A stretch of DNA of 34,030 nt from an uncultured Nitrososphaerota archaeon (GCA_964398605.1 CAYNNH010000003.1:1-34030); one strand, 5' to 3'; counted from the stretch's first letter, positions 1,482 to 17,718 are shown. Notes: generated from the sequence alone by a model not told the origin. Made by a program: numbers and translations.

Positions 1482-2067
1482 TTACCTCACCCCTCACGAG
1501 GCGGAAGTAGGACATGCCGAAGGACCAAATGGCCGTGACCCAGACGAAGTCGATGAGGGGGCCGAAGAAGAAGTAGCTCGCCCTAAAGACCGTTAGGCCG
1601 TAGTAATAGCCGAGGACGAGGGAGAAAGCGAGCCTTACCAAGTTCCACGCGAAGAGGAGGAAGCAACCGCTCACGAGCCAGACGACTTTGTACCAAATGG
1701 GACCTCGGAGGGCGAAAGCGGTGAAGCTCATCAGGACGCAGAAAACGAGCAAGACGGCGAAACCGGAATACCTCCAGTCGATGGGGAGGACGAAGGGACG
1801 GACATCGGGGAAGTACGTCACTAATTGAGGCCAGCTCATCTCCACGTAGTTCGGAATCCCTCCGAAGGAGAGCAATTCGGAAAGGGAGTAGGCGATCACG
1901 CTCGACGTAAGTCTCGTGTTGATGACGAAGCAGAAAATGAGCGTGCAGGCGAGGCCGACAGCAACTCCCAACCAGTCGGGCTTCTCTTTAAAGGCTAGCA
2001 TAGGTGGATCGGGGTCTCCTCCGTTCGCCTCGATCCACCGCCTCGCCTCTATTGCCTTGCGCACTTC
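1471..2067 (-). CDS. Small polytopic membrane protein, exosortase/archaeosortase-like topology and motifs but without the nucleophile Cys
   Basis: About 5-6 TM segments. The pattern LLSFGGIPNYVEMSW..(17)..LPIDWRYSGFAVLLVF followed by LLFAWNLVRLAFSLVLG recalls the exosortase-family L..lGi...(n)..aCSG and N..R motifs, with Y where Cys is expected. Start is uncertain. The track start 2193 would overlap the upstream gene by 104 nt. GTG at 2067 lies about 25 nt downstream of a TATAAAA box. ATG at 2001 (hand-checked) is another option. Confidence 0.5.
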   Translation of the reverse strand, partial: EVRKAIEARRWIEANGGDPDPPMLAFKEKPDWLGVAVGLACTLIFCFVINTRLTSSVIAYSLSELLSFGGIPNYVEMSWPQLVTYFPDVRPFVLPIDWRYSGFAVLLVFCVLMSFTAFALRGPIWYKVVWLVSGCFLLFAWNLVRLAFSLVLGYYYGLTVFRASYFFFGPLIDFVWVTAIWSFGMSYFRLVRGEVIAS

Positions 2068-2087
2068 CGCAGAAAGGAGAGTCCTAC

Positions 2088-2094
2088 TTTTATA
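2088..2094 (-). promoter_or_regulatory. TATA-like box (TATAAAA on the minus strand) overlapping the TAA stop of the upstream gene
   Basis: The reverse complement of 2085-2097 reads GGATATAAAAGTA. The box centre is about 24-26 nt upstream of GTG 2067, consistent with a leaderless internal transcript for the sortase-like gene. Confidence 0.3.
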
Positions 2095-4456: not shown

Positions 4457-7400
4457 CCAAGGTTAGCGCTCCTAGCTTCACATAGTCGAGGAAGAACTCA
4501 ACGGGTGACTGGACAGCTTGTTGACTCGTCGTCCTCGAAGACTCGGGCTTCAGGTGGAACCCGTTCACCAGCTCGAAAGGCAAGTTGCAGGCGATGAGGG
4601 ATATGTTGTAGAGCTGACGCATGTTCTCCGCTTCGTTGTGATCTTCGTCCCACGCCACGTACAGCCAATACACGCCTTTCTTCGTGAGCTTGGCGTAGAG
4701 GACTTCCCTCCAAGCGAAAGCGCTACTCCGCACGGGATAGCTCCTGCTCCCCGTGCCCTTCGCCCGGAAGATGGAAGTCGTCCAGCCCAACGCCATCTGC
4801 AATTCGTCCAACTGCGATTCGGGTATGCTCTCGTTATACGCCGTGTCGTAGAGGCACGAGGTCAAGAAGGCCACGTAGTGGTGGGAGCGGTCGGGTTGCC
4901 ACTGCCCTCGGGCTTCCTTGTACCAGTTCATGTAGAAGCGCAGGTAGGTGAACGAGTAGTTGTTGTATATCTTGAACTTGAGGACGTTGCCTCCCGAGCG
5001 GGTCATCGAGCTGCAGATGCTCGTCAAGTTTTCGAGTTGCGTGTAGTTTTTAAGCGAGTAGTATGTGTAGGGGGACCACACCTTGAATGATATAGGCTGG
5101 GACAAGTCTGGCCAGTAGAACTCTAGGAGGTAAATGCCGCCTTTTAGCACGACCTCGTATGGCACGTCGGGCTCCAATATGTCAAAGAATAGGTATCGGT
5201 AGTTGGGGGCGACGAATATAATGTACCCGGTGGCTCCGCCCGAAACGGAAACCCTTATGCGGACGGGATAGCCGGGAGCTTCGGTCTCGGATCGGTTCAT
5301 CTGGAGGAACATGATGGCGAAACCGTACCTACGGCCTCGCTCCTTGCGGGGCACTACATAGGAGCTGTAGATCAATTGCTCTTCGAGGGCCGGATTATCT
5401 ATGGTTACGTCGACGCACTTCGTTACGTTATGTCCAGCGTAGTCGTAGGCGTAAATCCACATCTTGTATTTACCGTTGAAAATTTCCCTCGTGAGGAACG
5501 CCCTGCCCCAGTAGCAGGAGTCGCCCTCGCGGTACATGGCGTGCCACTTGCGCGGCATGTATTCGGTGCTGTTAAACTTGAAGCCCACCTTCCAGACGCC
5601 GCTACCGCTTCCCGTGTAGAAGTCGTCTATGTAGGCGCGCACGTAAAGTTGTTCGGGCAGTTTGCCGGGCGAGACTAGGATTTTTATATCGGGAGGCTCT
5701 TGGTCGTCGAAGCTCATCGGGACGGAAGAGTTCCCGAAGTAGCGGAGGGTTTCTTCTTGGACGAACCTGCCGTATATCTTGAGCTTGTATATGCCGGGCT
5801 CCGTCGCGTTGAACTCGATGACGTTGAGCTTGCGGTACTCGGAGGAATCATCGGCATAGATGAGGTCTCCCTCCGGATCGAAGACGAAGAAATCGAGGTC
5901 GTTGACCCCGAGGGCCGTTCTCAATCCCGCGAAGTAATGGATGCACACTTTGACCTCGCCCGGTTGATCAACGTGCAAGTTGATGGTGGAGAACTTGCCA
6001 TTTGCAACGCGGCCCATGAACCATTTCTGGGCGCCCGATTCGTCCGTCCAGTTCCCAGGCATGTGCAACATGGCCATTACGGTGGCGGCGTAAGCATCGA
6101 TGACTCCCCAGCCGTAGCGGTTATCGGGACCGGATGGGCCAGCGTCCATGGCGGTGTTCTTGATGATCCACTTGAGGTACATGGCGCGGTCGAAAGGCGG
6201 TAGCGTGTAGAATTGATCGGGCCCCCAAGCCTCGACCATGAGGGCGGTCAGGCCAGCGACTTGCGGGGTGGCTAGAGAAGTGCCTCCGACGACCCAGAGA
6301 GATTTGGACCATTCCCAAGTGTTGTTAAGCAATCTGGTGGCGAGCTCGTAGTCAGCTACCAGACTTGCGTTGGCCGCCGCGACTTCAATGGGGGCGCAAA
6401 CATCCGGTTTTATTCGACCGTCCGCCGTAGGACCTCCCGAAGAGTACCACACGATCTGCGGAAAGTTCCAAACATCGACAGCACCTATTGTTAAGGCAAG
6501 CCTTGAAGCAGCGGGAGAGCCTATGGGCTCGGGATAGAAGTTCCCCGCAGCAACCACGATTAATACGCCGTTCATGCAGGCCAAATCAGCCATAATACAT
6601 TCTGGATCGTCTCCGCTCGAGGGGCCTATGCTCCCCCAACTATTGCTCGCACAGGTTACGTTGTATTTGTCGCGGTGGGTAACTAACCAGTCCCAAGCGG
6701 CCATACCAGAGGCTCCGGAGACATAAGCAGTCCCTATGATGCTGATCATGTGCGAGATAACCGTGGCGTTAGGAGCCATTCCTATGTGGAAGTATTCGCT
6801 CGCCTTCCCTGAACCCACAGCAGCTCCCGTACACATTGTCCCGTGGTAATCAACATCGTACGGAAACTCCTTGAACATCTGCCAATCAACCCACGCAACA
6901 AGCCGGTCGTTCCACGTCCCATTCCAGCGGCCTAGCTCTTCTTGATACGGATCAAAGCCCGTGTCGACTACAGAGATGACGACGCCCTTATACCTTGGGG
7001 CCGGAATTCCCGGGTACTTCTTGCCCGTGAAGCCTAAGGCGTACTTCAATATGTCCGATTTGGTGGCCCCCCAGCTCCTGCGTAACATGTGTCCGTGCGG
7101 AGGCAGTATCTTGTTCGCCCCTGTCCACTCCCTCGACCACCTCATGCAGAGCGGGATTTTCCGATCCCCATAGACAAAGGCGACTCCATCAAGCGATGGA
7201 AGCAGGTGTATGATGCTCGGAGGGACGTCAGCTAGGACAGCGTCGGCCATGACGAACTTGTAAACGACGTTCCCGCCGAGGGTTTCTATTAGGGCGATGT
7301 CCTCCTCCGTCACGGGGCGGTCGTACCACACCATGACGCGGGCCAAATTGGGAGCGTAAGGCGGGTGCACGAACTCGCCTTTCTCGAGGATGTCGTCTAT

Positions 7401-7760
7401 CTTGTTAAGGTTCTTGTCGTAGCGTGAGAGGCTAGGAGGCGGTTCGGCGAGGCGGTATATTCCGCGTTCTGCATCGAAAACTACGCGCGGCCTGCGGTAC
7501 TCTTTGAGCTCCACTAGGCCTTCCGAAGAAGCGTGCTTCGATACGACTCCAATATGTTCGTACCACCGCAACTTCTGCTCGATTTCGCGGACTTCGCCAG
7601 CAAAGGGATTGGCGACTTGCCGATAAGTGCGCGTGGAAGTCTCGGGCGAGGTGCTCGTCAGTAACTTGCTGAAAGCGGGCAAGAGCTCAAAAGCCGCGAT
7701 AATAACGGGCACCGCTAAGATCGCGAGGCAAATGGCGGTAATTACTTTCGAGCGCCTCAT
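4443..7760 (-). CDS. Membrane-anchored subtilisin-like serine protease (peptidase S8) with I9-like propeptide and a C-terminal beta-rich extension of about 530 aa
   Basis: Catalytic motifs VVISVVDTGFD (Asp), DYHGTMCTG (His), VAAGN (oxyanion Asn) and GGTSLATPQVAG (Ser). N-terminal signal anchor ITAICLAILAVPVIIAAF. Propeptide-like segment VMVWYDRPVTEEDIALIETLGGNVVYKF. PPC-like segment DLDFFVFDPEGDLIYADD...GIYKLKIYG and Ig-like segment WIYAYDYAGHNVTKCVDVTIDN. The track start 7763 is TTG and the next codon (7760) is ATG, which is used here. Confidence 0.9.
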   Translation of the reverse strand: MRRSKVITAICLAILAVPVIIAAFELLPAFSKLLTSTSPETSTRTYRQVANPFAGEVREIEQKLRWYEHIGVVSKHASSEGLVELKEYRRPRVVFDAERGIYRLAEPPPSLSRYDKNLNKIDDILEKGEFVHPPYAPNLARVMVWYDRPVTEEDIALIETLGGNVVYKFVMADAVLADVPPSIIHLLPSLDGVAFVYGDRKIPLCMRWSREWTGANKILPPHGHMLRRSWGATKSDILKYALGFTGKKYPGIPAPRYKGVVISVVDTGFDPYQEELGRWNGTWNDRLVAWVDWQMFKEFPYDVDYHGTMCTGAAVGSGKASEYFHIGMAPNATVISHMISIIGTAYVSGASGMAAWDWLVTHRDKYNVTCASNSWGSIGPSSGDDPECIMADLACMNGVLIVVAAGNFYPEPIGSPAASRLALTIGAVDVWNFPQIVWYSSGGPTADGRIKPDVCAPIEVAAANASLVADYELATRLLNNTWEWSKSLWVVGGTSLATPQVAGLTALMVEAWGPDQFYTLPPFDRAMYLKWIIKNTAMDAGPSGPDNRYGWGVIDAYAATVMAMLHMPGNWTDESGAQKWFMGRVANGKFSTINLHVDQPGEVKVCIHYFAGLRTALGVNDLDFFVFDPEGDLIYADDSSEYRKLNVIEFNATEPGIYKLKIYGRFVQEETLRYFGNSSVPMSFDDQEPPDIKILVSPGKLPEQLYVRAYIDDFYTGSGSGVWKVGFKFNSTEYMPRKWHAMYREGDSCYWGRAFLTREIFNGKYKMWIYAYDYAGHNVTKCVDVTIDNPALEEQLIYSSYVVPRKERGRRYGFAIMFLQMNRSETEAPGYPVRIRVSVSGGATGYIIFVAPNYRYLFFDILEPDVPYEVVLKGGIYLLEFYWPDLSQPISFKVWSPYTYYSLKNYTQLENLTSICSSMTRSGGNVLKFKIYNNYSFTYLRFYMNWYKEARGQWQPDRSHHYVAFLTSCLYDTAYNESIPESQLDELQMALGWTTSIFRAKGTGSRSYPVRSSAFAWREVLYAKLTKKGVYWLYVAWDEDHNEAENMRQLYNISLIACNLPFELVNGFHLKPESSRTTSQQAVQSPVEFFLDYVKLGALTLDEIR

Positions 7761-7778
7761 CAAGAAAGGACGGTTTTT

Positions 7779-8513
7779 TCAATATATTTTTAAGCACTTT
7801 AATCGCAAAATATCCCTCACGAAGCCCAATACCTCGCCCAATCCCAGCTTAGAGCGACCTCTTTTTCTTTCCACGAAAGTTATTGGAACTTCTTTTATCC
7901 TCAAACCGCACGAATAACAACGGTAGAGCATTTCCACCTGAAAAGCATAACCATCGGAAGAAACTCTTTGAAAGCCAGCTTTTTCGAGAGCTTGGGCAGA
8001 ATAAGCTCTGTACCCGCTCGTGCAATCCTTCACAGGTAACCCTAATAAATGGCGGGCAATGGCGTTGGCGCCCTTGCTTATGATTCGCCTCTTTAAGGGC
8101 CAATTGACGATTTTTCCTCCCTGTACGTAGCGAGAACCAACGGCGACATCGTAACCTTCCTCAATAGCCCCTAATAAGCGGGGCAGGTCCTCCGGTCTGT
8201 GGGAAAAATCGGCGTCCATCTCAACAATTACGGAGGCGCCCGCCTCCAAAGCCCTAGAAAAACCGTCTTTATACGCGCTACCGAGGCCCAACTTGCCTGG
8301 GCGAATTAGAACATCAATGTTCCCGTACCTACGGCCTAATTCTCGAGCAATTTCTGCTGTCCCATCGGGGCTCGAATCATCAACGATGAGGATCCAGGAG
8401 TTTTCCGGCAAAACTCTTTCCAACGCTGGTATGAGGCGGGCGACATTCTCTCTCTCGTTGTACGTGGGGATCACGACGCAAATCTCGACCACGTATGAAT
8501 ACCGAACCAGCAA
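7779..8513 (-). CDS. GT2 polyprenol/dolichol-phosphate mannosyltransferase-like (DPM1/AglD-type Dol-P-hexose synthase)
   Basis: VVIPTYNERENV, LIVDDSSPDGT, VEMDADFSHRPEDL and GSRYVQGG are typical of the DPM1 family. The start at 8513 is TTG. GTG at 8492 (giving MVEICVVIPTYNE) is an equally plausible start. Confidence 0.85.
   Translation of the reverse strand: MLVRYSYVVEICVVIPTYNERENVARLIPALERVLPENSWILIVDDSSPDGTAEIARELGRRYGNIDVLIRPGKLGLGSAYKDGFSRALEAGASVIVEMDADFSHRPEDLPRLLGAIEEGYDVAVGSRYVQGGKIVNWPLKRRIISKGANAIARHLLGLPVKDCTSGYRAYSAQALEKAGFQRVSSDGYAFQVEMLYRCYSCGLRIKEVPITFVERKRGRSKLGLGEVLGFVRDILRLKCLKIY
7781..7793 (-). promoter_or_regulatory. TATA-like box TTAAAAATATATT (minus strand) inside the last codons of the upstream GT2 gene
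   Basis: Hand-derived reverse complement. The box centre (about 7787) is 27 nt upstream of the S8 protease ATG at 7760, suggesting an internal promoter and a leaderless S8 transcript. Confidence 0.3.
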
Positions 8514-8571
8514 TAAAGCGGTCGAAACGGCTCTAAGTCATAAGGCGGGGAAGCAAGATTTTGTGGGACGG

Positions 8572-9666
8572 ATGGTCGGCGAAAGGCGTTCGAGGTTGCG
8601 GGTCGTCCACGTAGCCCCTTACTTCTACCCGTCAGGCGGAATTGAGGCCCACCTTTTCGAGCTAACGAAGAGGCTAGCGCGTTTGTGCGATGTCAAGATA
8701 TTGGCTTCCAAGCCCGGCAAAAATCTCGTGCTCCCTTGGGGCGCCGAAGTCGAGTACTTCAGCTCCGTCGATGCCGTAGCATTGCCCATTAAGCCCAAGG
8801 TGCGCTACCCTTTCCCATTCGGCATGCTCGCCAAAGTAGCCCAAGAAGAATGCGACGTGGTCCACGTGCACGGCCACCACTACCCCACCTCGTTCGTGGC
8901 GAGGAGGGCGTGCTCTCTTTCCCACAAGCCGTACGTGCTCACGGTCCACAGTCCGAGGACGATGCTCATGGAGCACGCCATCGTGAGGCAGGTGCGCAAG
9001 ATCCTCGACAAGGAGATCAGGAAGACCGTGGCGTCCGCCGAAGCGTGCATAGCGGTTACCGAAAAAGTGAGGCGGTATTTGGAGGAATTCTTCGAGCCTA
9101 AGCGCGTAGAGCTAATTAGGCACGGCGTGGAGGTGCGGTTCCTCCCCGAGGGAGAGGACGTCGTGTTCGTCGGCAGACTCGTCGATTACAAGCACCCGGA
9201 TGTCTTCGTTCGAGCGGCCGCCAAGATAGCGAAGGAGATCCCGGCGAAGTTCTACGTGGTGGGCGGAGGTCCCTTGCTCGGAGAGCTGAAGCGTTTGTGC
9301 AAGGAGCTCGGCGTGGGAAAAAGGATCGTGTTCGCAGGCCAACTGCCGAGAAGAAAGGTTAGAGAATATGTGAGAAGGGCGAGGGTCTTCGTCGCTCCGT
9401 ATTTGACTGGCGGTTTAGCCGTTCTCGAGGCCTTAGCCATGGGGAGGGTCGTGGTCGGGATGAGGGGGGACGAGCCCACGGACCAAGTTATCCTCCAGAT
9501 AGAGAGCTTGGATGTGGAGGAAGTAGCTGAAAAAGTGCTTTCGGCATACTTAGACGAGAAATTGAGGAGGAGTTTGCTGGAAAAAACCAAAGAAGTCCTC
9601 AAGCGCTACTATAGCTGGGAAGAGTGCATTAGGAAGCACATGAAAATTTACGAGGCTTTAGCCTAA
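8572..9666 (+). CDS. GT-B fold glycosyltransferase, family 4-like
   Basis: LRVVHVAPYFYPSGGIEAH N-terminal signature. C-terminal half has VVFVGRLVDYKHPDV...FYVVGGGP...VFVAPYLTGGLAVLEALAMGRVVVG. The track ORF starts at 8293, but that part is antisense overlap with the divergent GT2 gene. ATG at 8572 (hand-checked) gives a standard 364-aa enzyme. Confidence 0.8.
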   Translation: MVGERRSRLRVVHVAPYFYPSGGIEAHLFELTKRLARLCDVKILASKPGKNLVLPWGAEVEYFSSVDAVALPIKPKVRYPFPFGMLAKVAQEECDVVHVHGHHYPTSFVARRACSLSHKPYVLTVHSPRTMLMEHAIVRQVRKILDKEIRKTVASAEACIAVTEKVRRYLEEFFEPKRVELIRHGVEVRFLPEGEDVVFVGRLVDYKHPDVFVRAAAKIAKEIPAKFYVVGGGPLLGELKRLCKELGVGKRIVFAGQLPRRKVREYVRRARVFVAPYLTGGLAVLEALAMGRVVVGMRGDEPTDQVILQIESLDVEEVAEKVLSAYLDEKLRRSLLEKTKEVLKRYYSWEECIRKHMKIYEALA

Positions 9667-9694: not shown

Positions 9695-10441
9695 GTGGGA
9701 AAGAAATCCGTCGAGGTAAGCGTAATCGTTCCCGTCCATAACGAAGCTAGTATCCTCGAGAAATCGGTGAAGGAGATTGAAAAGTTCGTCAGGAAGCTAA
9801 CCGACGACTACGAGCTGATTATAGCCGAAGATGGAAGCACCGATGGGAGCTACGAAATAGCCCTGAAGCTGGCGCAGTCGAACCCGAGGATAAAGGTCTT
9901 CCACAAGAATGTCCGCGTGGGGAAGGGCACGGCGATCAAGGAAGCGAGCATGGTAGCTTCCGGGAACGTCGTGGCGTTCATAGATGTGGACTTGTCGCCG
10001 GATCCTGCTTTCTTGCCGGTAATCATCAGGAAAGCGAGGGAGGTTAACGGGGTCGCCGTGGGCTCTCGTCTGGCGAAGGGAGCGATCATAAGGGGGGCGA
10101 AGCGCGCCCTCTTGAGCTTAGTCTATAATACTTTGGTCAGAATTTTATTCCGCGACGGGATAAGCGACCACCAGTGCGGCCTCAAGGCGTGGGTCAAGGA
10201 GGTGAATCGCCGAATCGTGCCGAAGACGAGGAAAAGCTGGTTTTTCTGGGACACGGAGCTCATCGTGAGGAGCAAGGTGGAGGGGTTCAACGTGGTGGAA
10301 GTTCCCATCAGGTGGACGCGGAAGGCGAAGTTCGGCGCGAGGAGGTCCCGCGTTAAGATATGGAAAGATTCGGCTTGGATGCTCGCGGGGGTCGTTTGGC
10401 TCTTCTTCAGGCTATTGAAGGAAGGAAAGCTGAGAATTTGA
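9695..10441 (+). CDS. GT2 dolichyl-phosphate hexose (glucose)-synthase-like enzyme with C-terminal TM
   Basis: VSVIVPVHNEASIL, IIAEDGSTDGS and AFIDVDLS (DxD). C-terminal hydrophobic helix SAWMLAGVVWLFFRLL. GTG start hand-checked. Confidence 0.85.
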   Translation: MGKKSVEVSVIVPVHNEASILEKSVKEIEKFVRKLTDDYELIIAEDGSTDGSYEIALKLAQSNPRIKVFHKNVRVGKGTAIKEASMVASGNVVAFIDVDLSPDPAFLPVIIRKAREVNGVAVGSRLAKGAIIRGAKRALLSLVYNTLVRILFRDGISDHQCGLKAWVKEVNRRIVPKTRKSWFFWDTELIVRSKVEGFNVVEVPIRWTRKAKFGARRSRVKIWKDSAWMLAGVVWLFFRLLKEGKLRI

Positions 10442-10446
10442 GCTAG

Positions 10447-10456
10447 TTTTTATTTT
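10447..10456 (+). promoter_or_regulatory. TTTTTATTTT tract: possible oligo-T terminator for the upstream gene and/or TATA box for the next
   Basis: Lies 6 nt after the TGA at 10439-10441. Its centre is about 23 nt upstream of GTG 10475. Confidence 0.3.
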
Positions 10457-10474
10457 GACGCACGCTATTAGCGA

Positions 10475-11953
10475 GTGGAAGAAACGAAGGTGATTTTCGT
10501 AGGTGTGGACGGGGCCTCTTGGGAAGTAATTAGGCCCCTAATGGAGCTTGGGGAATTAAGGGGGTTTGGGATGCTCGCGTCCGAGGGGGCGTGGGGGGTC
10601 CTCAAGTCCACCATGCCCCCGGTGAGCGCCCCTGCTTGGGTTTCCATGTTTACCGGGAAAAACCCGGGGAAGCACGGAATTTTTGACTTCGTTTACCCGA
10701 CCCCGCATGGCTTGCGCTTGCACAAATCGACGGACGTTAAGACGAGCACGCTCTTCGAATATTTAGCTCTCTTGGGGAGGCGTTGCGTAGTTATCGGGCT
10801 CCCCCTTTCTTACCCCCCGAAAGGCCTTTTCAACGGCATCATGTTTTCGGACTTCCTCTATCCCCGCATAAGCGTCTTCCCGAGCTCGAAGTCCCATTAC
10901 CTGAAGCGTAGCGGCTACAAGCCCGTCGCCGACACGACAAAGAGGGGGATATCGCTCATAGGAGAGGCCCTCGAAACCCTTCGGAGGAGACTGGATTTAG
11001 CGAAAACTCTCCTGCTTGAGGAGGAATGGGACTTCTTCTTCGTCTGGATCGGGGAAACGGACACTTTGTCGCACCCGTTTTGGAAAGAAATGGTTGAAGG
11101 GAGCAAGGTAGGGCGGAAAGCTTGCCAGACTTATCGCTACGTGGACGCGTTCCTCCGGTGGATCTTGAGGAAGTTCGGAGACGATTCCGCCATCTTCGTG
11201 GCGTCGGATCACGGCTTCCAATACGTCCCCTACGAGGTGAGGCTGAACGCTTTGTTCAAGGCTCTGGGGCTTTTGGAGGTAAGGAAAGGAGCGGAAAAGG
11301 CGATCTCGGAGAGATCTTTCGAATGCGCGCTCACGAGGCGATTGCGTAGCAGGGTGGCGGCCAAGCTCGTCTTCGAGGGAATTTCCCTGGTTCGAAGCAT
11401 GCTTGGACAAGCCATCCCCAGCATCGACTACGAGAACTCGGTTTTCGTCCCCACGATGGAAGCCCTCGGCGTCTACGTGCGCAAGTCCACGGCGCGCGAA
11501 ATCGCCCTTCTCTTGCGAAAAATGACTTACAAGGGCAGACGCGTGTTCAGGACGGTGAAGTTGAGGGAAGAAGTTTATTCAGGGCCCTACGTAGAGCAAG
11601 CGCCGCACGTTCTCTTCCTGCCCGACGGTTTCTTGGTATCTCCCAGCTTGAGGGGGAGCTTGTTCGCGAAATCGAAGCTACAGGGCTACCATGACGAGAA
11701 CGGAGTTCTGATCGCCTACGGGGAGGGGATAAAGCGCGGCGAAATAACCAGTGCTTGCATTTACGACGTTTTGCCAACCCTCCTACATATGTTCGACCTG
11801 CCTCTGCCTAACGACCTAGACGGAAGGATTCTGCCGATTTTCGAGAAGGGGAGCGTCTATGATAAAAAAGCGACTTACGTCGACACAAGAGCCTACAAGG
11901 AGGTCATTCAAATAAAGAAATTGGCCAAGAAATTAACCGATGAGAGGAAATAA
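10475..11953 (+). CDS. Alkaline-phosphatase superfamily protein, nucleotide pyrophosphatase/phosphodiesterase (NPP)-like, soluble (paralog 1)
   Basis: VIFVGVDGASWEV, STMPPVSAPAWVSMFTGKNPGKHGI, FVASDHGF and GYHDENGVLIAYG match the metal-ligand and nucleophile layout of the Phosphodiest/AP family. Clear paralog of 14920..16296. An alternative GTG start lies at 10490. The 3' end overlaps the next gene by 14 nt. Confidence 0.8.
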   Translation: MEETKVIFVGVDGASWEVIRPLMELGELRGFGMLASEGAWGVLKSTMPPVSAPAWVSMFTGKNPGKHGIFDFVYPTPHGLRLHKSTDVKTSTLFEYLALLGRRCVVIGLPLSYPPKGLFNGIMFSDFLYPRISVFPSSKSHYLKRSGYKPVADTTKRGISLIGEALETLRRRLDLAKTLLLEEEWDFFFVWIGETDTLSHPFWKEMVEGSKVGRKACQTYRYVDAFLRWILRKFGDDSAIFVASDHGFQYVPYEVRLNALFKALGLLEVRKGAEKAISERSFECALTRRLRSRVAAKLVFEGISLVRSMLGQAIPSIDYENSVFVPTMEALGVYVRKSTAREIALLLRKMTYKGRRVFRTVKLREEVYSGPYVEQAPHVLFLPDGFLVSPSLRGSLFAKSKLQGYHDENGVLIAYGEGIKRGEITSACIYDVLPTLLHMFDLPLPNDLDGRILPIFEKGSVYDKKATYVDTRAYKEVIQIKKLAKKLTDERK

Positions 11954-14378
11954 CAAGCTTGAGTTAGTTATCATAGGATTAGGCGTTATCTCGGCTTTAA
12001 CTTTGGCGCTTTACTGGAGGGGGACTCTCTGGGGCGATCACATCTTCATAGACATGCCGAACCACGCCACTTCGGCTTGGTATTACGCGGAATACTTCCC
12101 GGGAATACCGCCGAACTGGTTTCCGTATTGGTACACGGGAAAGCCCTTCCCGGGGCTCTACCCGCCCTTCCCCTACTTCATCGGGGGCGTGTTCTACTCC
12201 CTAAGCCGAGACCCGTTCGCGACGACGAAGGTCATGTGCCTCCTCTCAATAATCCTAAGCGGCTTCCTCGCCTTCCTCACCTTAAGGCACTTAGTTGGGG
12301 ATTGGAAGCCCGCCCTCTTAGGAGCGGCCGTGTGGATAGCCGCCCACAACAGGCTAGTCATAATGGGAATTGGGAATTACCCGAAGCTTTTCTCGTCCAT
12401 ATTCCTCTGGCTGTTGCTTTACTCTCTGGCCAAGCTACAGGAAGAGGTGAGCCTAGAAAGGGTACTGGTCTTGTCGGTAGTCGTGGCGGGGCTCTTGCTT
12501 TCCAACGTAACGGAGGCTATTCTGGGTTTCGTACTCGGCGTCCTCTGGTGGTTCCCCGAAGTGTTCAGGAAAGGGACTTGGAAATTCATTTGGGCGGCTT
12601 TGGCGGGAGCGTTGTTGGGCGTTGGGCTCGCCGCCTTCTGGTGGGTGGAAGTCATCGTGTACCCCAAGCTCTTCCAAATGGCCGCCCCCGTCCAACCGGG
12701 CGCTACTCTACGCATGCCCAACCTCGCGGACTACGAAAAGTGGTTCGGGATGGTTCCCCTTGCGCTCGCCTTTGTCGGCCTGAGGTACTATTGGAACAGA
12801 AAGCCTGCTTTGGTCGCTTTGGGAGCCTTGATATTCGCGTTGCTGAAAGTCACGGCCCCCGAGGCTCTCGTAACCCCCTTCTTGGTTCAGCTTCCCTTCA
12901 CATACGCCCTGCCCCTCGGAACCCTCGGGCTCAGCATCCTAGGAAGCTACGCGGCTAAGAAAGTGCTCTCCAGCGGTAAGTTTTCGCTAAGAGGTCGAGA
13001 ATTCATTCTCTTTGCCCTGATCGCGCTCGTAATTGCCGAGGGAATGTACCACGCGTACACGTATCCCGTGCTTTCCCAGCATCCGCTCCGCTCCCCGGAA
13101 ATCCAAGAATTCTTGTCCCCCGACTGGAAGTACCGGGTCTATGGACCGGAATATGATTGGACCTTATCGAGTGTGCTCCCCTCCCGCGTTGAGGGAAGTA
13201 CTCTTAATGGGTGGGACATCGTCGACTCCCCTTGGGGCTTGGTCAGCTTCGTCTTGAGCTACGAGAAGTCGAACCTCGCCACCCCGCAGGACTACGCGCG
13301 TTTCATGGAGTTCCTCGGCGTCAGGTACTACGTGGCCAAGAAAGGGGATGTGCGCTTCCGCCTCATCAACTCCTCAGGGCGCTACGTCGCCGATGGAGAG
13401 GTGGGCAAAGGCTATGTGCTCTTCGAGCACGTGGGCAAGTTGAACATGTGCTCCGCTTTGCTCCCCACGGCCTTCGTAGGGGATAAGTATCACGCGGATC
13501 TGTTCCTTCCCGTCTTCCTCGAAAAGCCGCTCGTAGTGGTCGAAGAAAGGCTCGACCTCATCGAGCCCGAAAGTCTACGATCCTACGAGGTCGTTATACT
13601 CCATGGAGTAGACAGTCCTGTCGGCATATGCCCCGACTACGACACCATAAGGGAGCGGGTTCTCGAATTGGCGGAGGAAGGAAAGACGGTGATCCTCTGC
13701 GTCGACGGAACTACCTGCCTGTACGAGAGCGAGCTTTTCGGCGTGACCGTCCACTTGGGCAAGCTGTACGGCGAGGTGAGCTACTCCGGATCCGTAGCTG
13801 GGGTGGACTATTCCCGCTTCTCGCCGGCGATTTGGGAAGGAGGGCCGTGGAACTTCGCGTACTTCGAAGGGGGGAGGACGTTGTTACGGGTGGAAAATTA
13901 CAGCGTGGTCGTCGAGCGGGAGCTGAAGAACGGGAAAATCATCTTCGTGGGCTACAACTTGCCCTACCACGCGACCTACCACGAGAACGCCGAAGAAGTG
14001 CTTTTCCTGAGGAAATTGCTGGTAAGGGGCGTAAAAGGAGAAGGGGTTTTCGAACCTCTGGACGCGACGAACTACGTGCTTCGCGTGAACTTAACTCAAC
14101 CGGCCATCGTAGGGATCCCCCTCACTTACTACGCGGGCATTCGATCCTCGGAAGGAAAGGTTATACCGACGGAGCTTGACTTGTGCGCCCTCTACGTTCC
14201 CGCGGGCGAGTATACCATCCACATATCCGTTGGGCGAACGGACGAGGAAAGGAACGCTACGATCGCTTCCTTAGGCTTGTGGCTTGCCGTGATTGCTCTC
14301 TTTTTGATAAGGATGACGGAATGGACCGAGTTCAAGAAACGCCTATCGAAGCTACGCTTCCTGCTCCAAAAAAGCTAG
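11940..14378 (+). CDS. Large integral membrane protein, GT-C/YfhO-like putative glycosyltransferase (paralog B)
   Basis: Many N-terminal TMs. First-loop motifs WGDHIFIDMPNH and WFPYWYTGKPFPGLYPP. Large extracytoplasmic domain whose segment EEGKTVILCVDG...GGRTLLRV...GKIIFVGYN aligns by eye with paralog A (EKGFPIVVFTDQ...GGRTVIGY...GLAYFVGMN). C-terminal TM anchor LGLWLAVIALFLI plus a basic tail. ATG at 11940 hand-checked. Confidence 0.7.
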   Translation: MRGNNKLELVIIGLGVISALTLALYWRGTLWGDHIFIDMPNHATSAWYYAEYFPGIPPNWFPYWYTGKPFPGLYPPFPYFIGGVFYSLSRDPFATTKVMCLLSIILSGFLAFLTLRHLVGDWKPALLGAAVWIAAHNRLVIMGIGNYPKLFSSIFLWLLLYSLAKLQEEVSLERVLVLSVVVAGLLLSNVTEAILGFVLGVLWWFPEVFRKGTWKFIWAALAGALLGVGLAAFWWVEVIVYPKLFQMAAPVQPGATLRMPNLADYEKWFGMVPLALAFVGLRYYWNRKPALVALGALIFALLKVTAPEALVTPFLVQLPFTYALPLGTLGLSILGSYAAKKVLSSGKFSLRGREFILFALIALVIAEGMYHAYTYPVLSQHPLRSPEIQEFLSPDWKYRVYGPEYDWTLSSVLPSRVEGSTLNGWDIVDSPWGLVSFVLSYEKSNLATPQDYARFMEFLGVRYYVAKKGDVRFRLINSSGRYVADGEVGKGYVLFEHVGKLNMCSALLPTAFVGDKYHADLFLPVFLEKPLVVVEERLDLIEPESLRSYEVVILHGVDSPVGICPDYDTIRERVLELAEEGKTVILCVDGTTCLYESELFGVTVHLGKLYGEVSYSGSVAGVDYSRFSPAIWEGGPWNFAYFEGGRTLLRVENYSVVVERELKNGKIIFVGYNLPYHATYHENAEEVLFLRKLLVRGVKGEGVFEPLDATNYVLRVNLTQPAIVGIPLTYYAGIRSSEGKVIPTELDLCALYVPAGEYTIHISVGRTDEERNATIASLGLWLAVIALFLIRMTEWTEFKKRLSKLRFLLQKS

Positions 14379-14923
14379 CGGATTATCCCCCTTTCCCTGA
14401 GGAAATCGAGGACTTTTCGGACGCTCTCTTCCACCGTTTCCTTGTCCGTTTCCAGAATTAAGTCGGCCGGGGGATCAGTGGGCTCTTCGTACACGTCGCT
14501 GACGCCCGTGAAGTCCTTTATTTCCCCCCTCAAGGCCTTCGCGTACATCCCCTTCACGTCCCTCTCCATGCACACCTCGACGGGGCACTTCGTCCAGACG
14601 AGGAGGAACTTCTCGGGTCCTATGATCTCCCTTATCTCGCGCCTCACGTCGTTGTAGGGCGAGACGAAGGTGGCGAGGACTATGACTCCGTTCCTCGAAA
14701 GCAACTTGCATATGAAGGCCGCCCTGTGGAGGTTCTTGCGCCTATCTTCCTTCGAGAAGCCCAAGTCCCTAGAAATGGGGCTCTTCCGCAACATGTCGCC
14801 GTCGAGCCTCTCGGCGCGGTAGTTCATCTTCCGCAAGATCTCGGCAACTCGATCGGCCACCGTTGACTTGCCGCTACACGGAAGTCCCGTGAACCAAACG
14901 GTCACTCCTTCCGTTTCCTTCAA
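14375..14923 (-). CDS. cysC: Adenylylsulfate (APS) kinase
   Basis: GVTVWFTGLPCSGKSTVA (P-loop), LDGDMLR, LGFSKEDRRKNL, RDVKGMYAKALRGEIKDFTGVSDVYEEP. The track start 15064 adds 47 Arg/Gly-rich residues that overlap the upstream gene. TTG at 14923 (hand-checked) overlaps the upstream TGA as TTGA and gives a normal 182-aa kinase. The start is therefore inferred. Confidence 0.9.
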   Translation of the reverse strand: MKETEGVTVWFTGLPCSGKSTVADRVAEILRKMNYRAERLDGDMLRKSPISRDLGFSKEDRRKNLHRAAFICKLLSRNGVIVLATFVSPYNDVRREIREIIGPEKFLLVWTKCPVEVCMERDVKGMYAKALRGEIKDFTGVSDVYEEPTDPPADLILETDKETVEESVRKVLDFLRERGIIR

Positions 14924-16296
14924 ATTATGGACCTCCCCCTCACGCCCTCGGGAATGGGCAACTCGAAGAATTCGAGGATCGTTGGGGCGATGTCCTCTAT
15001 CCTCGCGTCCACGCGGCCCTCCTTCCCGCCTTCGGGGTCGTAGAATATGAAGAGCCCGTCCCAATCGTGGACGGCGTCATCGGGACCTTTGTCGTTCCTG
15101 TCGAGGTAGAAGGTTTCCCACCCGATCGTGCCAGCGGAGCGGTAGGAAAGGTCGTCGAAGAAAGCCATCAGGTCGGGAGGATCCCCTTTTATCGTGGCGT
15201 ACACGTCCTCAGGTTTGACGACTTTGTTCTCCCATTTCTCGCCGTTGGGACCGCGGACTTTCTCAAGCTCCCTCGCGAGTTCGTTTCGAACATCCTCATA
15301 CTCCTCGGGCTCGACGACGCCCTTCATTTCCCTCCCTTTGACGTTGATGAAGACCCTCGCGTAGTACCCTCCCCACCCCCAAGCGACGGTGCGCTCCCAA
15401 TCGACCTCCGCGTCCTTCAGGTCGACCACCCCTTTCGGTCGCCCCTTCAGCTTGAGGTACCCCTGCTCGATGAGCCACTCGTTGATGCAGAAGCAACCCT
15501 TCATGCGCTTGGCGCCGTGATCGGAAACCACCAGAACGGCGGCATCTTCCCCCACGCGTTCTAAGAGCTCCCCGATCCATCGATCGACGAACTTGTAGTA
15601 TTCGAGGATCACGTCGGCGTACGGGCTGTTCTCCTCGTGGAGGTGGTGCTCGGGATCCATGTACCTCCAGAAGGCGTGGTGAACGCGATCGACGCCTATT
15701 TCGACGAACCAGAAGAGGGACCAGTCCTTGTATTGCCCGAGCAAGAAGTCGATCGCCTTAAAATGCTGCTCCGTCATTTCGAAGAGCTCCCTTTTAATTC
15801 TGTCCTTCTCCTCGGAGCGGTAGAGGATGTCGAAGCGGTAATCGCCTCCCGTGTGGGCGAGTATCCGCTCCTTAAGGTGCTCGGGGTACGTCCACTTCGA
15901 ATTCACGTCGGGCGTTATGAAGCCCGAGACCATGCACCCCTTCACCGGCTTCGGCGGGTAACTCGGGGGAACGCCCACTATGATGCTCTTCGCTCCACGT
16001 TCGCCCAGCAAGTCCCACACGGTCGGTTCCTCGACCTTGAGCGAGTTCGCGATCCATATCTCGGTGTACGAATACGCCTTCCTGTGCCTGAAGCCGTAAA
16101 GCCCCAGCTGGCCGGGGTCTTTGCCCGTCGCCATGACCATCCACGCGGGGATCGTGATCGGCGGGATGGTCGAGTACAATCGCCCGCTCAGACCGTTCTC
16201 GTAGAGGAAGCGCAAATTGGGCAACTCGTCCTTGAACTCGTCGAAGACGAGCGACGGCTCGGCGCAATCTAGTCCGATGATGAAGAGCTTCTTCAT
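14920..16296 (-). CDS. Alkaline-phosphatase superfamily protein, NPP/phosphodiesterase-like, soluble (paralog 2), embedded between sat and cysC
   Basis: LFIIGLDCAEPSL, STIPPITIPAWMVMATGKDPGQLGL, LVVSDHGAK and AVHDWDGLFIFY. ATG at 16296 overlaps the sat stop as ATGA (hand-checked). Confidence 0.8.
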   Translation of the reverse strand: MKKLFIIGLDCAEPSLVFDEFKDELPNLRFLYENGLSGRLYSTIPPITIPAWMVMATGKDPGQLGLYGFRHRKAYSYTEIWIANSLKVEEPTVWDLLGERGAKSIIVGVPPSYPPKPVKGCMVSGFITPDVNSKWTYPEHLKERILAHTGGDYRFDILYRSEEKDRIKRELFEMTEQHFKAIDFLLGQYKDWSLFWFVEIGVDRVHHAFWRYMDPEHHLHEENSPYADVILEYYKFVDRWIGELLERVGEDAAVLVVSDHGAKRMKGCFCINEWLIEQGYLKLKGRPKGVVDLKDAEVDWERTVAWGWGGYYARVFINVKGREMKGVVEPEEYEDVRNELARELEKVRGPNGEKWENKVVKPEDVYATIKGDPPDLMAFFDDLSYRSAGTIGWETFYLDRNDKGPDDAVHDWDGLFIFYDPEGGKEGRVDARIEDIAPTILEFFELPIPEGVRGRSII

Positions 16297-17429
16297 TTCA
16301 CGAAAGGCTCTTCGAATTGGGCGATTACTTCCGCCACTTCGGGCCTCATCATGGTTTCGGGCGGCTTTTCGCCCCTAAGGAACATCTTCCTAATCTTCGT
16401 GCCGGAGAAGTCGACGCGATACTCGTTTCCGTGGGGGCATATTTTCTCGTTCACGATCCCCCCGCACCGCTTGCAGTAGAAGAAGGAGCGGAAGAAGAGA
16501 GGAGTTATGCCTAGGTCGGGGTATTCGCGGAAGATGTCCCACGCCTCGTAGGGGCCGTAGAAGTTGCCCACTCCCGCGTGATCCCGCCCGACGATGAAGT
16601 GCGTGCAACCGAAGTTCTTCCTGATGATGGCATGGAATATGGCTTCCCTAGGCCCTGCGTAACGCATCTCGGTTTCGAGAACGGCGAGGACGACGGAATT
16701 CTTGGGGTAATAATGATCCAGCAGGACTTCGTAAGCCCGAATGATGACCTCGTCCTTGAAGTCCCCCGGCTTCTTCTTCCCTATCAGAGGGTTTATGAAC
16801 AAGCCATCCACGAACGTTAGGGCCGCTTTCTGAACGTATTCATGTCCCAAGTGAGGGGCGTTCCTAGTTTGGAAGCCGACGACGGTCTTCCAGCCCTTCT
16901 CCTTGAAAAGAATCCGCGTTTCCTTCGGCCACAAACGATAACGCTCGAAGTCGCTTGGCGGATCTTTTAACAGCGTGATCTTCCCCCCGACGAGGAAGTC
17001 CTCTTTCTTCATGAGCTCGGCCACGCCTGGGTGGCTCACGTCGGTCGTCTTGAACACCTTTTCGGCGTAGAGCTTCTTGTCGTAGCGGTAAATTTCCTCG
17101 ATTTCGAGCAACCCCATCGGCTCGTCCTTGTAGAACAGGGCGATTTGGTCGCCTTCGATAATCTCCTTTATCTCCTTGCGGCTTATGTCCATGACGATGG
17201 GAATTGTCCAAGGGAGGTCGTTCGACAGCCTCCCCTCGTAGAGCACGTTCTCGAAGTCCTCGCGCAACATGTAGCCCTCTAGGGGCGAGAAAACCCCGTG
17301 ACCGATGTTGGCGAGATCCCTCGCTTCGTCGAGAGAAATGTTCTTCCTAGGGAGTTCGAAGGCCTCTTCCCGCCGTTCTTCCCGGAAGTCTAGCCGCTCG
17401 ACTAATTTGCCTCCGTGGGGCAGGACCAT
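16293..17429 (-). CDS. sat: Sulfate adenylyltransferase (ATP sulfurylase)
   Basis: GFQTRNAPHLGHEY and FIVGRDHAGVGNFYGPYEA motifs, with a PUA-like N-terminal domain and a length of 378 aa. ATG at 17429 hand-checked. Confidence 0.92.
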   Translation of the reverse strand: MVLPHGGKLVERLDFREERREEAFELPRKNISLDEARDLANIGHGVFSPLEGYMLREDFENVLYEGRLSNDLPWTIPIVMDISRKEIKEIIEGDQIALFYKDEPMGLLEIEEIYRYDKKLYAEKVFKTTDVSHPGVAELMKKEDFLVGGKITLLKDPPSDFERYRLWPKETRILFKEKGWKTVVGFQTRNAPHLGHEYVQKAALTFVDGLFINPLIGKKKPGDFKDEVIIRAYEVLLDHYYPKNSVVLAVLETEMRYAGPREAIFHAIIRKNFGCTHFIVGRDHAGVGNFYGPYEAWDIFREYPDLGITPLFFRSFFYCKRCGGIVNEKICPHGNEYRVDFSGTKIRKMFLRGEKPPETMMRPEVAEVIAQFEEPFVK

Positions 17430-17431
17430 CG

Positions 17432-17683
17432 CTAATCGAGGTAGCCTAAAGCCCTAAGGCGGGCTTTTACTTTTTCCTCGTCCTCCTTGGAGAAGGGCTC
17501 TTCTTCCTTCTCGACTTCGGCGAGGACTTCCCTTAAGACGAAGGTAACGTAGCTACTGACCGAAGTGAAGCCCGTGCCCTTGATACGTTCCTTGATCTTG
17601 TTGTAGAGGGGCGTAGGGATCGAAATAGTAGTGAAGCGACGTTCTTTCTTGGCCTCTTCCTTCTCTTTTTCTTCTTTCGACAT
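17432..17683 (-). CDS. Ribbon-helix-helix (CopG/Arc/MetJ-type) DNA-binding protein, probable regulator of the sat operon
   Basis: 83 aa. A charged N-terminus is followed by RRFTTISIPTPLYNKIKERIKGTGFTSVSSYVTFVLREVL, a beta-strand plus two helices typical of RHH. The stop is 2 nt before the sat ATG. Confidence 0.7.
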   Translation of the reverse strand: MSKEEKEKEEAKKERRFTTISIPTPLYNKIKERIKGTGFTSVSSYVTFVLREVLAEVEKEEEPFSKEDEEKVKARLRALGYLD

Positions 17684-17687
17684 CTTA

Positions 17688-17699
17688 ATGACATGTCAT
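17688..17699. promoter_or_regulatory. Perfect 12-bp palindrome ATGACATGTCAT, candidate operator
   Basis: Verified by hand to be self-complementary. It sits between the TATA-like box (17706-17712) and the RHH ATG (17683), a position from which a bound repressor would block transcription initiation. Confidence 0.4.
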
Positions 17700-17705
17700 G
17701 AGGGC

Positions 17706-17712
17706 AATATAA
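17706..17712 (-). promoter_or_regulatory. TATA-like box TTATATT (minus strand) for the RHH-sat-AP-cysC operon
   Basis: The reverse complement of 17704-17721 reads TAGAAACTCTTATATTGC. The box centre (17709) is 26 nt upstream of the A of ATG 17683, which implies a leaderless mRNA. A purine-rich BRE-like AGAAA lies just upstream. Confidence 0.4.
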
Positions 17713-17718
17713 GAGTTT

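Follow-up and report, generated by a model that had tools for sequence, protein, structure and literature searches.

Organization of the cassette

The stretch of DNA analyzed here, referred to throughout as the window, comprises 34,030 nucleotides from an uncultured Nitrososphaerota archaeon (GCA_964398605.1 CAYNNH010000003.1:1-34030) and contains, at 14375-17718, a compact cassette of four minus-strand genes: a gene for a ribbon-helix-helix (RHH) protein, sat, a gene of the alkaline-phosphatase (AP) superfamily that we call AP1, and cysC (Table 1). An original prediction made from the sequence had described a packed four-gene operon at this place, and all four open reading frames (ORFs) were found at exactly the coordinates it gave, with every junction and motif reproduced. 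The RHH stop codon TAG (17432-17434) is followed by two nucleotides, 'cg', after which sat begins with its ATG at 17429; the TGA of sat and the AP1 ATG overlap as ATGA (16293-16296), and the AP1 TGA overlaps an in-frame TTG of cysC as TTGA (14920-14923). A second cysC start, a GTG six codons downstream of the TTG, would give a protein of 176 residues; the homologs have 177-181, and either start is equally plausible.

The assignment of the two enzymes of sulfate activation is firm. The sat product combines the Pfam domains PUA_2 and ATP-sulfurylase (3.7e-96), matches NCBIfam PRK04149 above its cut-off (7e-162, 538 bits) and carries the motifs QTRNAPHLGHEY and VGRDHAGVG, while the cysC product matches Pfam APS_kinase (1e-53) and TIGR00455 (201 bits against a cut-off of 138.7) and contains the P-loop GLPCSGKST together with LDGD. 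Both genes are co-oriented in a single cluster whose neighbors either overlap or lie 2 nucleotides apart. The sat/cysC operon is real and translationally coupled, and should make 3'-phosphoadenosine 5'-phosphosulfate (PAPS) by way of adenosine 5'-phosphosulfate (APS), in agreement with the PAPS supply originally proposed.

Table 1. Positions of the cassette genes, its control elements and other features of the window.
Feature	Position	Strand	Description	Basis
RHH	17432..17683	-	CopG-like ribbon-helix-helix protein, 83 aa; putative transcriptional regulator of the cassette	homologs and weak NikR-type match
sat	16293..17429	-	ATP sulfurylase (sulfate adenylyltransferase), 378 aa	Pfam and NCBIfam
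AP1	14920..16296	-	PF01663 NPP-fold enzyme of the alkaline-phosphatase superfamily, predicted cytoplasmic, 458 aa	Pfam, orthology to PYCH_17550
cysC	14375..14923	-	APS kinase, 182 aa from TTG (or 176 aa from GTG)	Pfam, TIGR00455
TATA-like box	17706..17713	-	CTTATATT; the RHH ATG follows about 27 nt further downstream	read from sequence
Palindrome	17688..17699	.	ATGACATGTCAT, perfectly palindromic over 12 nt; follows the TATA-like box and precedes the RHH start	unique in window
T6 run	14368..14373	-	one base past the cysC stop; resembles an archaeal oligo-T terminator	read from sequence
AP2	10475-11953	+	second PF01663 paralog, 492 aa	Pfam
PTPS_related gene	11940-14378	+	GT-C-like membrane protein	
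GT4 gene	8293-9666	+	longest ORF	
GT2 gene	7779-8513	-	divergent from the GT4 gene	
S8 subtilase gene	4443-7763	-	1106 aa	
Gene without family match	2090-4456	-	788 aa	
Archaeosortase-type gene	1471-2193	-	exosortase/archaeosortase family	TIGR04178, E 7.8e-07

Distribution and regulation of the cassette

A scan of one genome per species identified relatives of AP1 in at least 593 genomes. The 80 best loci were fetched and searched with the window's own proteins, and for each neighbor only those loci were counted at which its presence could be judged. The best 120 matches listed are all full-length, share 53-63% identity with AP1, bear generic names only and belong to Asgard archaea, Bathyarchaeia, Methanomethylicota, Methanomicrobia, Acidobacteriota and Aminicenantes. 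Directly downstream of AP1, cysC lies on the same strand in 64 of 76 judgeable loci, sat is found at most 1.5 kb upstream in 50 of 66, and the fully colinear cassette is present in 46 of the best 80. Among the taxa represented are Aminicenantes, Bathyarchaeia, Asgard lineages, Archaeoglobi, Thermococcus, Thermoplasmatota and Nitrososphaerota. Because the same order recurs in most of 80 independent loci, it goes beyond chance. The original prediction had made its case depend on the AP gene being syntenic with sat and cysC, and this synteny extends across many phyla. The four-gene unit is not confined to Thermococcales and Crenarchaeota and occurs in at least several hundred species-level bacterial and archaeal genomes.

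A cassette of this kind is already known from the Thermococcales. The cluster described in Pyrococcus yayanosii consists of copG (PYCH_17520), an ATP sulfurylase gene, a DHH-family gene for a pApase (PYCH_17540), PYCH_17550, annotated as a 'type I phosphodiesterase/nucleotide pyrophosphatase', and an APS kinase gene, with TauE adjacent, and the same cluster is reported from Ferroglobus, Aciduliprofundum, Aeropyrum and Ignicoccus (PMC8268124). The P. yayanosii protein recovered by our search (P0121) is PYCH_17550 itself, encoded in the context of a 73-residue gene, sat, DHH, PF01663, APS kinase and TauE, and AP1 matches it over its full length with 54% identity (E = 0), from which we assign the two as orthologs. 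RHH, sat and cysC of the window likewise have homologs there in the same order. The P. yayanosii cluster, like that of the window, abuts glycan genes (Wzx, a family 2 glycosyltransferase (GT2) and DegT) and a second, longer PF01663 gene; it contains the DHH gene and the TauE permease gene, whereas the window has neither. In Thermococcus onnurineus, TON_1704-1707 show the same order, with TON_1705 named a pyrophosphatase in a report that cites Lee et al. 2009, J Bacteriol 191:3415 (PMC4463584). Here too sat lies upstream and cysC downstream of the middle gene, and a DHH gene for a phosphatase of 3'-phosphoadenosine 5'-phosphate (PAP) is present, which the window is without: phmmer with two DHH seeds found no relative in the six-frame translation of the window, and there was no Pfam DHH match either. 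The window cassette thus belongs, as a form without DHH, to the known copG-sat-(DHH)-PF01663-cysC cluster, and its AP1 shares only 53-54% identity with the Thermococcales proteins. A literature search on clusters of sat, cysC and an 'alkaline phosphatase family' gene returned no relevant description.

The DHH gene is one of several points at which the loci vary. An extra gene of approximately 1 kb lies just upstream of AP1 in 17 of the 80 loci, mostly of Thermococcus, Archaeoglobi and Methanobacteriota type, and encodes a DHH-family phosphoesterase of the archaeal PAP phosphatase type, a group with TON_1706, PYCH_17540 and MtPAPP as characterized members (PMC8268124, PMC10322725). Outside the Thermococcales and Archaeoglobi the cassette without DHH is the commoner arrangement, and most colinear loci, of Aminicenantes, Asgard archaea and Bathyarchaeia, are of this form. 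Six Archaeoglobaceae loci (L028, L036, L040, L065, L067 and L077) have DHH-AP1-cysC with no adjacent sat, four of them with RHH upstream; as these are sulfate reducers, a dissimilatory Sat encoded elsewhere is the likely reason. Some Bathyarchaeota have RHH-sat-AP without cysC (L005, L063, L079). Furthermore, in three bacterial loci (L013, L020, L023) RHH-AP1 alone heads a polysaccharide cluster, with neither sat nor cysC; at L013 (7736-15526) it is followed by genes for an epimerase, a UDP-sugar dehydrogenase, RmlD, Wzz and a GT2. Because RHH-AP1 heads such clusters without sat or cysC, a wider role is hinted at, in which AP1 may serve nucleotide-sugar synthesis that produces inorganic pyrophosphate (PPi) as well as Sat, or may have another role. 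A separate observation concerns Candidatus Alkanophaga (L011), where a lone AP1 (7992-9350), without RHH, sat or cysC, adjoins a TnpB/Cas12f1-like gene (9819-10907), which suggests a transposon-associated relocation.

The first gene of the cassette appears to encode its regulator. The RHH protein has no Pfam match and only a weak match to the N-terminal RHH of NikR type in NCBIfam (E 0.007). It is nevertheless homologous to the copG gene of the P. yayanosii cluster, whose product PYCH_17520 is described as a putative copG transcription factor (PMC8268124), and homologs of 42-83% identity lie upstream of sat or the AP gene in 54 of 66 judgeable loci, P. yayanosii included. The spacer between the stop codon of the upstream family 4 glycosyltransferase (GT4) gene and the RHH start measures 35 nucleotides and holds both a TATA-like box and a palindrome. 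Given known archaeal promoter geometry, the box is the probable cassette promoter and would give rise to a leaderless or near-leaderless transcript, and the presence of both elements in the spacer indicates that the cassette would be transcribed from a promoter of its own and not together with the GT4 gene. At the other end, the T6 run that follows cysC may act as a terminator and so mark the end of the cassette, which is convergent with the plus-strand PTPS_related gene.

The palindrome ATGACATGTCAT occurs once in the window, and none of 100 shuffles matched it, even with one mismatch allowed. Related palindromes stand at the corresponding position in many archaeal loci, and one of them, the 16-mer TAATTAMATRTAATTA, was found in 9 of 87 loci, always and only just upstream of the RHH gene (L014 6577-6592, L030 6535-6550, L035 697-712, L042 6538-6553, L044 6586-6601, L049 4467-4482, L055 4194-4209, L066 6455-6490 and L085 7679-7694). 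The consensus, TAATTA-MATR-TAATTA, comes from archaeal loci of several phyla; the window palindrome keeps the ACATGT center, with both arms altered symmetrically. No such palindrome was clearly seen upstream of RHH in bacterial loci of Aminicenantes type. It is probable, judging from this placement, that the window palindrome is the operator of the RHH protein, and because the conserved palindrome sits directly upstream of the RHH gene we infer that the protein regulates its own expression. What is added here to a cassette of known kind is its spread across both domains and the conserved, operator-like palindrome upstream of the archaeal regulator gene.

AP1 and its proposed role in the removal of pyrophosphate

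AP1 matches the PF01663 (Phosphodiest) profile, for which the original prediction had suggested a search, with an E-value of 2.8e-48 and 165.7 bits against a cut-off of 23, residues 5-405 covering profile positions 2-341 of 342. Its AlphaFold model is of high confidence (mean pLDDT 94.9, pTM 0.93), and the top Foldseek matches in the Protein Data Bank (PDB) all belong to the nucleotide pyrophosphatase/phosphodiesterase (NPP) family (ENPP1, ENPP3, Xac NPP and ENPP6/7; E of about 1e-15, probability 1.00), at 11-15% identity and with TM-scores of 0.55-0.60 by query and up to 0.67 by target. No close structure was found by PDB sequence search, the best match being phosphonoacetate hydrolase (E 0.0013). 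The motifs PPITIPAW..TGKDPGQLG, VSDHG and HDWDG are all present in AP1, and T48, within PPITIPAW, aligns with the nucleophile Thr64 of phosphonoacetate hydrolase, a position changed in the variant entry 3t02. D10, T48, D203, H207, D259, H260 and H410 are invariant among 24 diverse homologs; except for T48, we take these residues to be the two-metal ligands of NPP enzymes, from their position in the motifs and from general knowledge. As the protein opens directly with the first core strand, it is predicted to be cytoplasmic and to have no signal peptide.

From fold and residues, AP1 is predicted to be a catalytically competent NPP-type enzyme. It resembles Xac NPP, ENPP1 and ENPP3 (PDB 2gsn, 4b56 and 6f2v) in core fold, threonine nucleophile and two-metal ligand set, and differs from them in its cytoplasmic location and in a poor alignment over approximately 40% of its length, which points to structural elements of its own. 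The substrate that we propose below, PPi, also sets it apart from these enzymes, which act on nucleotide diesters. The fold and residues of AP1 fit PPi and other anionic phospho- or sulfo-substrates alike.

On balance, we think it probable that the window holds a PAPS cassette of the Thermococcales type, in which an RHH-regulated operon supplies Sat, a PPi-hydrolyzing AP1 that pulls the Sat reaction, and CysC. In this scheme the CopG-like RHH protein would repress its own promoter through the palindrome. Sat would convert ATP and sulfate to APS and PPi, a strongly unfavorable reaction, and the co-translated AP1 would hydrolyze the PPi and thereby pull the reaction forward, while CysC would trap APS by phosphorylating it to PAPS. 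Sulfation would be the main use of the PAPS, with the surface glycan of the surrounding island as the probable acceptor and a sulfotransferase encoded outside the window as the transferring enzyme; the PAP left over would be removed by an enzyme encoded elsewhere, because the window cassette has no DHH gene. The most likely function of AP1 itself is that of an inorganic pyrophosphatase (PPase) pulling Sat. The original prediction had presented the AP gene as the uncharacterized step of the operon; in fact the cluster has been published (PMC8268124, PMC4463584) and TON_1705, in the same position, is characterized as a PPase, with a pH optimum of 9.5, a kcat of 2.1 per s and a Km of 18.8 uM (PMC9653972, Table 1). 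TON_1705 is the only member of the AP1 family for which a measured activity is reported, and its equivalence to AP1 is inferred from gene position and from the family annotation in PMC8268124.

The coupling of Sat to PPi removal is supported by two other systems: stramenopiles and haptophytes make Sat as a fusion protein with an inorganic pyrophosphatase (PMC2275785), and the PPase was rate-limiting in the reconstituted coupled Sat/APSK assay of Methanothermococcus thermolithotrophicus (PMC10322725). The eukaryotic fusions follow the same logic as the one proposed here, joining Sat to PPi hydrolysis against an unfavorable equilibrium, by gene fusion where the window has translational coupling. 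Their PPase is a conventional soluble one and does not have the NPP fold. In M. thermolithotrophicus, as is expected for the window, an archaeal Sat and CysC produce PAPS, and the pathway needs both fast PPi removal and a dedicated PAP phosphatase (PMC10322725). The genes involved there are ATPS, APSK, a DHH-type PAPP, an APS-reductase-like PAPSR and Fsr, with no AP-superfamily gene described; PPi is removed by a separate pyrophosphatase, and a PAPS reductase is present, whereas the window has none (PMC10322725).

Several observations nevertheless weigh against PPi hydrolysis as the purpose of AP1, or against the wider scheme. PPase activity is reported as measured for the T. onnurineus protein only, and AP1 is tied to it by position and annotation; for PYCH_17550 the degradation of PPi was 'speculated' (PMC8268124). 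Moreover, the kcat of TON_1705 lies approximately 10,000-fold below that of Ton1914, the family I PPase of the same organism (PMC9653972), so that a dedicated slow PPase looks redundant and PPi may be a side substrate. Bacterial and archaeal AP1 sequences share about 55% identity and have more than 100 invariant columns, a constraint that seems to exceed the need of simple PPi hydrolysis. The RHH-AP pairs of L013, L020 and L023 and the RHH-DHH-AP-cysC arrangement of Archaeoglobaceae all lack, at the locus itself, the Sat that AP1 would pull. As for the use of PAPS, only 2 of approximately 85 loci have a canonical sulfotransferase in the vicinity of the cassette, the adjacency of glycan genes is a raw count without a background rate, and the T. 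onnurineus cluster has been given an assimilatory reading, in which other parts of the genome encode putative PAPS and sulfite reductases (PMC4463584).

Destination of PAPS and alternative roles for AP1

The glycosylation-island setting described in the original prediction stands, with glycosyltransferases and membrane proteins on both sides of the cassette: on one side there is a GT4 and a 613-residue membrane protein, and on the other the PTPS_related gene is accompanied by another PF01663 gene and by GT2, GT4 and GT2. Its statement that neither consumer of PAPS is encoded in these 34 kb also agrees with our searches. Pfam scans of the 29 window ORFs taken as genes gave no PAPS reductase, sulfotransferase, DHH, TauE or DASS, phmmer with two sulfotransferase seeds found no sulfotransferase in the six-frame translation of the window, and no window ORF matched a regular expression for the sulfotransferase PAPS-binding motifs (5'-PSB K-x-G-T-T and 3'-PB), a strict pattern that may miss divergent enzymes. 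Applied to all six-frame ORFs of the loci, the same expression yielded one candidate, at L073, which was confirmed as a Sulfotransfer_1 protein.

The best available hint that PAPS is used in glycan sulfation comes from L085, which carries the closest relative of AP1 among the matches listed (63% identity). The order RHH-sat-DHH-AP-cysC is followed there by co-oriented genes for a Na/sulfate symporter (DASS), a hexapeptide acetyltransferase, a DegT aminotransferase and a GFO-type oxidoreductase, and the run continues with a canonical Sulfotransfer_3, a UDP-sugar dehydrogenase, a GT4 and a WecA-like transferase; an NTP_transferase gene lies in the same run on the opposite strand. Elsewhere, a short-chain dehydrogenase/reductase (SDR) epimerase gene stands directly after cysC in many loci, with UDP-sugar dehydrogenase genes further downstream. 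In total, genes for glycan or nucleotide-sugar metabolism occur in the fetched flanks of 49 of the 80 loci, a count given without a background rate; approximately half of these loci belong to one bacterial clade, and we do not claim an enrichment of glycan genes beside the cassette.

Because the L085 cassette runs into a symporter, sugar genes, Sulfotransfer_3 and glycosyltransferases, the idea gains support that PAPS feeds the sulfation of the island's glycan, which we regard as reasonable but unproven. The same locus would point to a canonical sulfotransferase, and not AP1, as the transferase. Of the original proposal that the operon supplies activated sulfate to decorate the island's glycan, with the AP enzyme as the transfer step, the first part is thus consistent with the L085 context and the second is unsupported. 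The purpose of PAPS synthesis in sulfide-adapted archaea is still described as unclear (PMC8268124, PMC10322725), and a 'non-canonical sulfo-transferase' has been suggested for methanogens (PMC10322725). A literature search on sulfated N-glycans in Thermococcus returned animal glycobiology only and no relevant paper.

An alternative destination is assimilatory sulfate reduction, in which PAPS would be converted to sulfite, sulfide and finally cysteine, and the position in a glycosylation island would be a coincidence. The Thermococcales literature calls the cluster assimilatory and places putative PAPS and sulfite reductases elsewhere in the T. onnurineus genome (PMC4463584), M. thermolithotrophicus uses ATPS, APSK and PAPP to this end (PMC10322725), and the glycan adjacency is not shown to exceed its background rate. 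However, the window contains no PAPS or sulfite reductase, and no such reductase was recognized among the recurrent neighbor families of the 80 loci, of which the commonest clusters were annotated. The putative T. onnurineus reductases were not detected in its proteome (PMC4463584), and in P. yayanosii neither a sulfotransferase nor sulfite-reducing enzymes were identified (PMC8268124). Many of the host lineages presumably live in sulfidic habitats and have no need to assimilate sulfate, and at L085 a sulfotransferase and sugar genes are in direct association with the cassette. Assimilation seems to us an unlikely destination, if the least unlikely of the alternatives considered here.

The remaining alternatives concern AP1 itself. 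If PPi were only a side substrate, AP1 might act on activated sulfate, either as a sulfotransferase working through a sulfo-threonine or by converting PAPS or APS to another sulfo-donor. Such a role would explain why most genomes with the cassette have no adjacent sulfotransferase, why AP1 is so highly conserved and why it is retained beside a family I PPase that is approximately 10,000-fold faster, and yet we give it only a slim chance. The more specific form of this idea makes AP1 a non-canonical sulfotransferase and hence the missing consumer of PAPS, passing sulfate from a sulfo-Thr48 intermediate to a glycan, a lipid carrier or a small molecule, in a scheme likened to the covalent phospho-transfer carried out by other AP-superfamily enzymes. 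Sulfatases are among the members of the AP superfamily, and NPPs can act promiscuously as sulfatases. No canonical sulfotransferase is encoded in the window and hardly any near the cassette in other genomes, AP1 is the one gene tightly tied to sat and cysC across domains and is very strongly conserved, and its T. onnurineus counterpart has a low PPase kcat (PMC9653972). The 'non-canonical sulfo-transferase' mentioned above was, moreover, raised for archaea with ATPS, APSK and PAPP (PMC10322725).

Against this, the same T. onnurineus protein does hydrolyze PPi, with the Km of 18.8 uM given above. The Sulfotransfer_3 of L085, in the same co-oriented run, and the Sulfotransfer_1 of L073 argue that a canonical enzyme is used with the cassette, an identity of 55% across phyla suggests one universal small substrate and not variable glycans, and the Bathyarchaeota loci with sat-AP and no cysC would leave such an enzyme without a PAPS donor. 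The only Pfam match of AP1 is to PF01663, with none to the sulfotransferase domains PF00685 and PF13469, and to our knowledge no PF01663 member transfers sulfate. The sulfo-transfer that the original prediction had offered for the AP gene finds no positive evidence, and we consider it improbable; with it, the central claim to novelty, a new sulfate-transfer step, falls away.

Equally improbable, in our judgment, is that AP1 acts as a phosphatase or phosphodiesterase on PAP, PAPS or APS, as a CysQ analog or editing enzyme that replaces DHH in the window, a possibility also raised by the original prediction. The DHH gene, carried by both of the closest relatives (L085 and L087), is indeed absent from the window and likewise from most colinear loci of Aminicenantes, Asgard archaea and Bathyarchaeia, and the nearest structures to the NPP fold of AP1, those of ENPP1, ENPP3 and Xac NPP, belong to enzymes that hydrolyze nucleotides; but AP1 and DHH adjoin each other in 17 of the 80 loci and in L081, L085, L086 and L087, and are not alternatives, AP1 sequences are not split by the presence of DHH, with the nearest relatives of the window protein having it, Pfam and Foldseek show no CysQ or DHH fold or motifs in AP1, and in T. 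onnurineus the two activities are assigned apart, PPi to TON_1705 and PAP to TON_1706 (PMC4463584, PMC8268124).

The second PF01663 gene of the window, AP2, was absent from the original prediction. Over its full length it shares 26% identity with AP1, and it retains a complete NPP catalytic set in which the nucleophile is a serine (PPVSAPAW). The last 14 nucleotides of AP2 coincide with the beginning of the PTPS_related gene, and the two are probably translationally coupled. Homologs of AP2 are at most about 43% identical to it, and AP2-like genes lie near the cassette in approximately 10 loci. Three homologs, from an Archaeoglobus veneficus-like genome, Ferroglobus placidus and L084, stand beside Wzx flippases and glycosyltransferases, with AglB/STT3 also present in L084, and no sat or cysC was found within 10 kb of any of the three. 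AP2 was considered as the missing consumer of PAPS and set aside, as these three independent homologs occur in glycan clusters without sat or cysC and the link looks indirect; it is an uncharacterized, cytoplasmic member of the AP superfamily that forms part of archaeal glycan clusters. Longer PF01663 genes, of 545-566 residues, adjoin the PAPS cassette in P. yayanosii (L081, 11386-13023, minus strand), where the protein also has weak Sulfatase and SGSH_C matches, and in L087 (5649-7349, minus strand). The co-occurrence of these genes, and of seven other AP2-like loci, with the cassette may likewise be indirect, by way of glycan clusters.

Two further features of the window concern other genes. 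At the edge of the island, the archaeosortase-type gene adjoins the gene for the 788-residue protein and that for the S8 subtilase, and together these genes may form a module for the processing of surface proteins. The longest ORF of the GT4 gene shares approximately 220 nucleotides with the divergent GT2 gene; because the GT4 domains begin only at residue 115, the true start of this gene probably lies well downstream of the first possible one.

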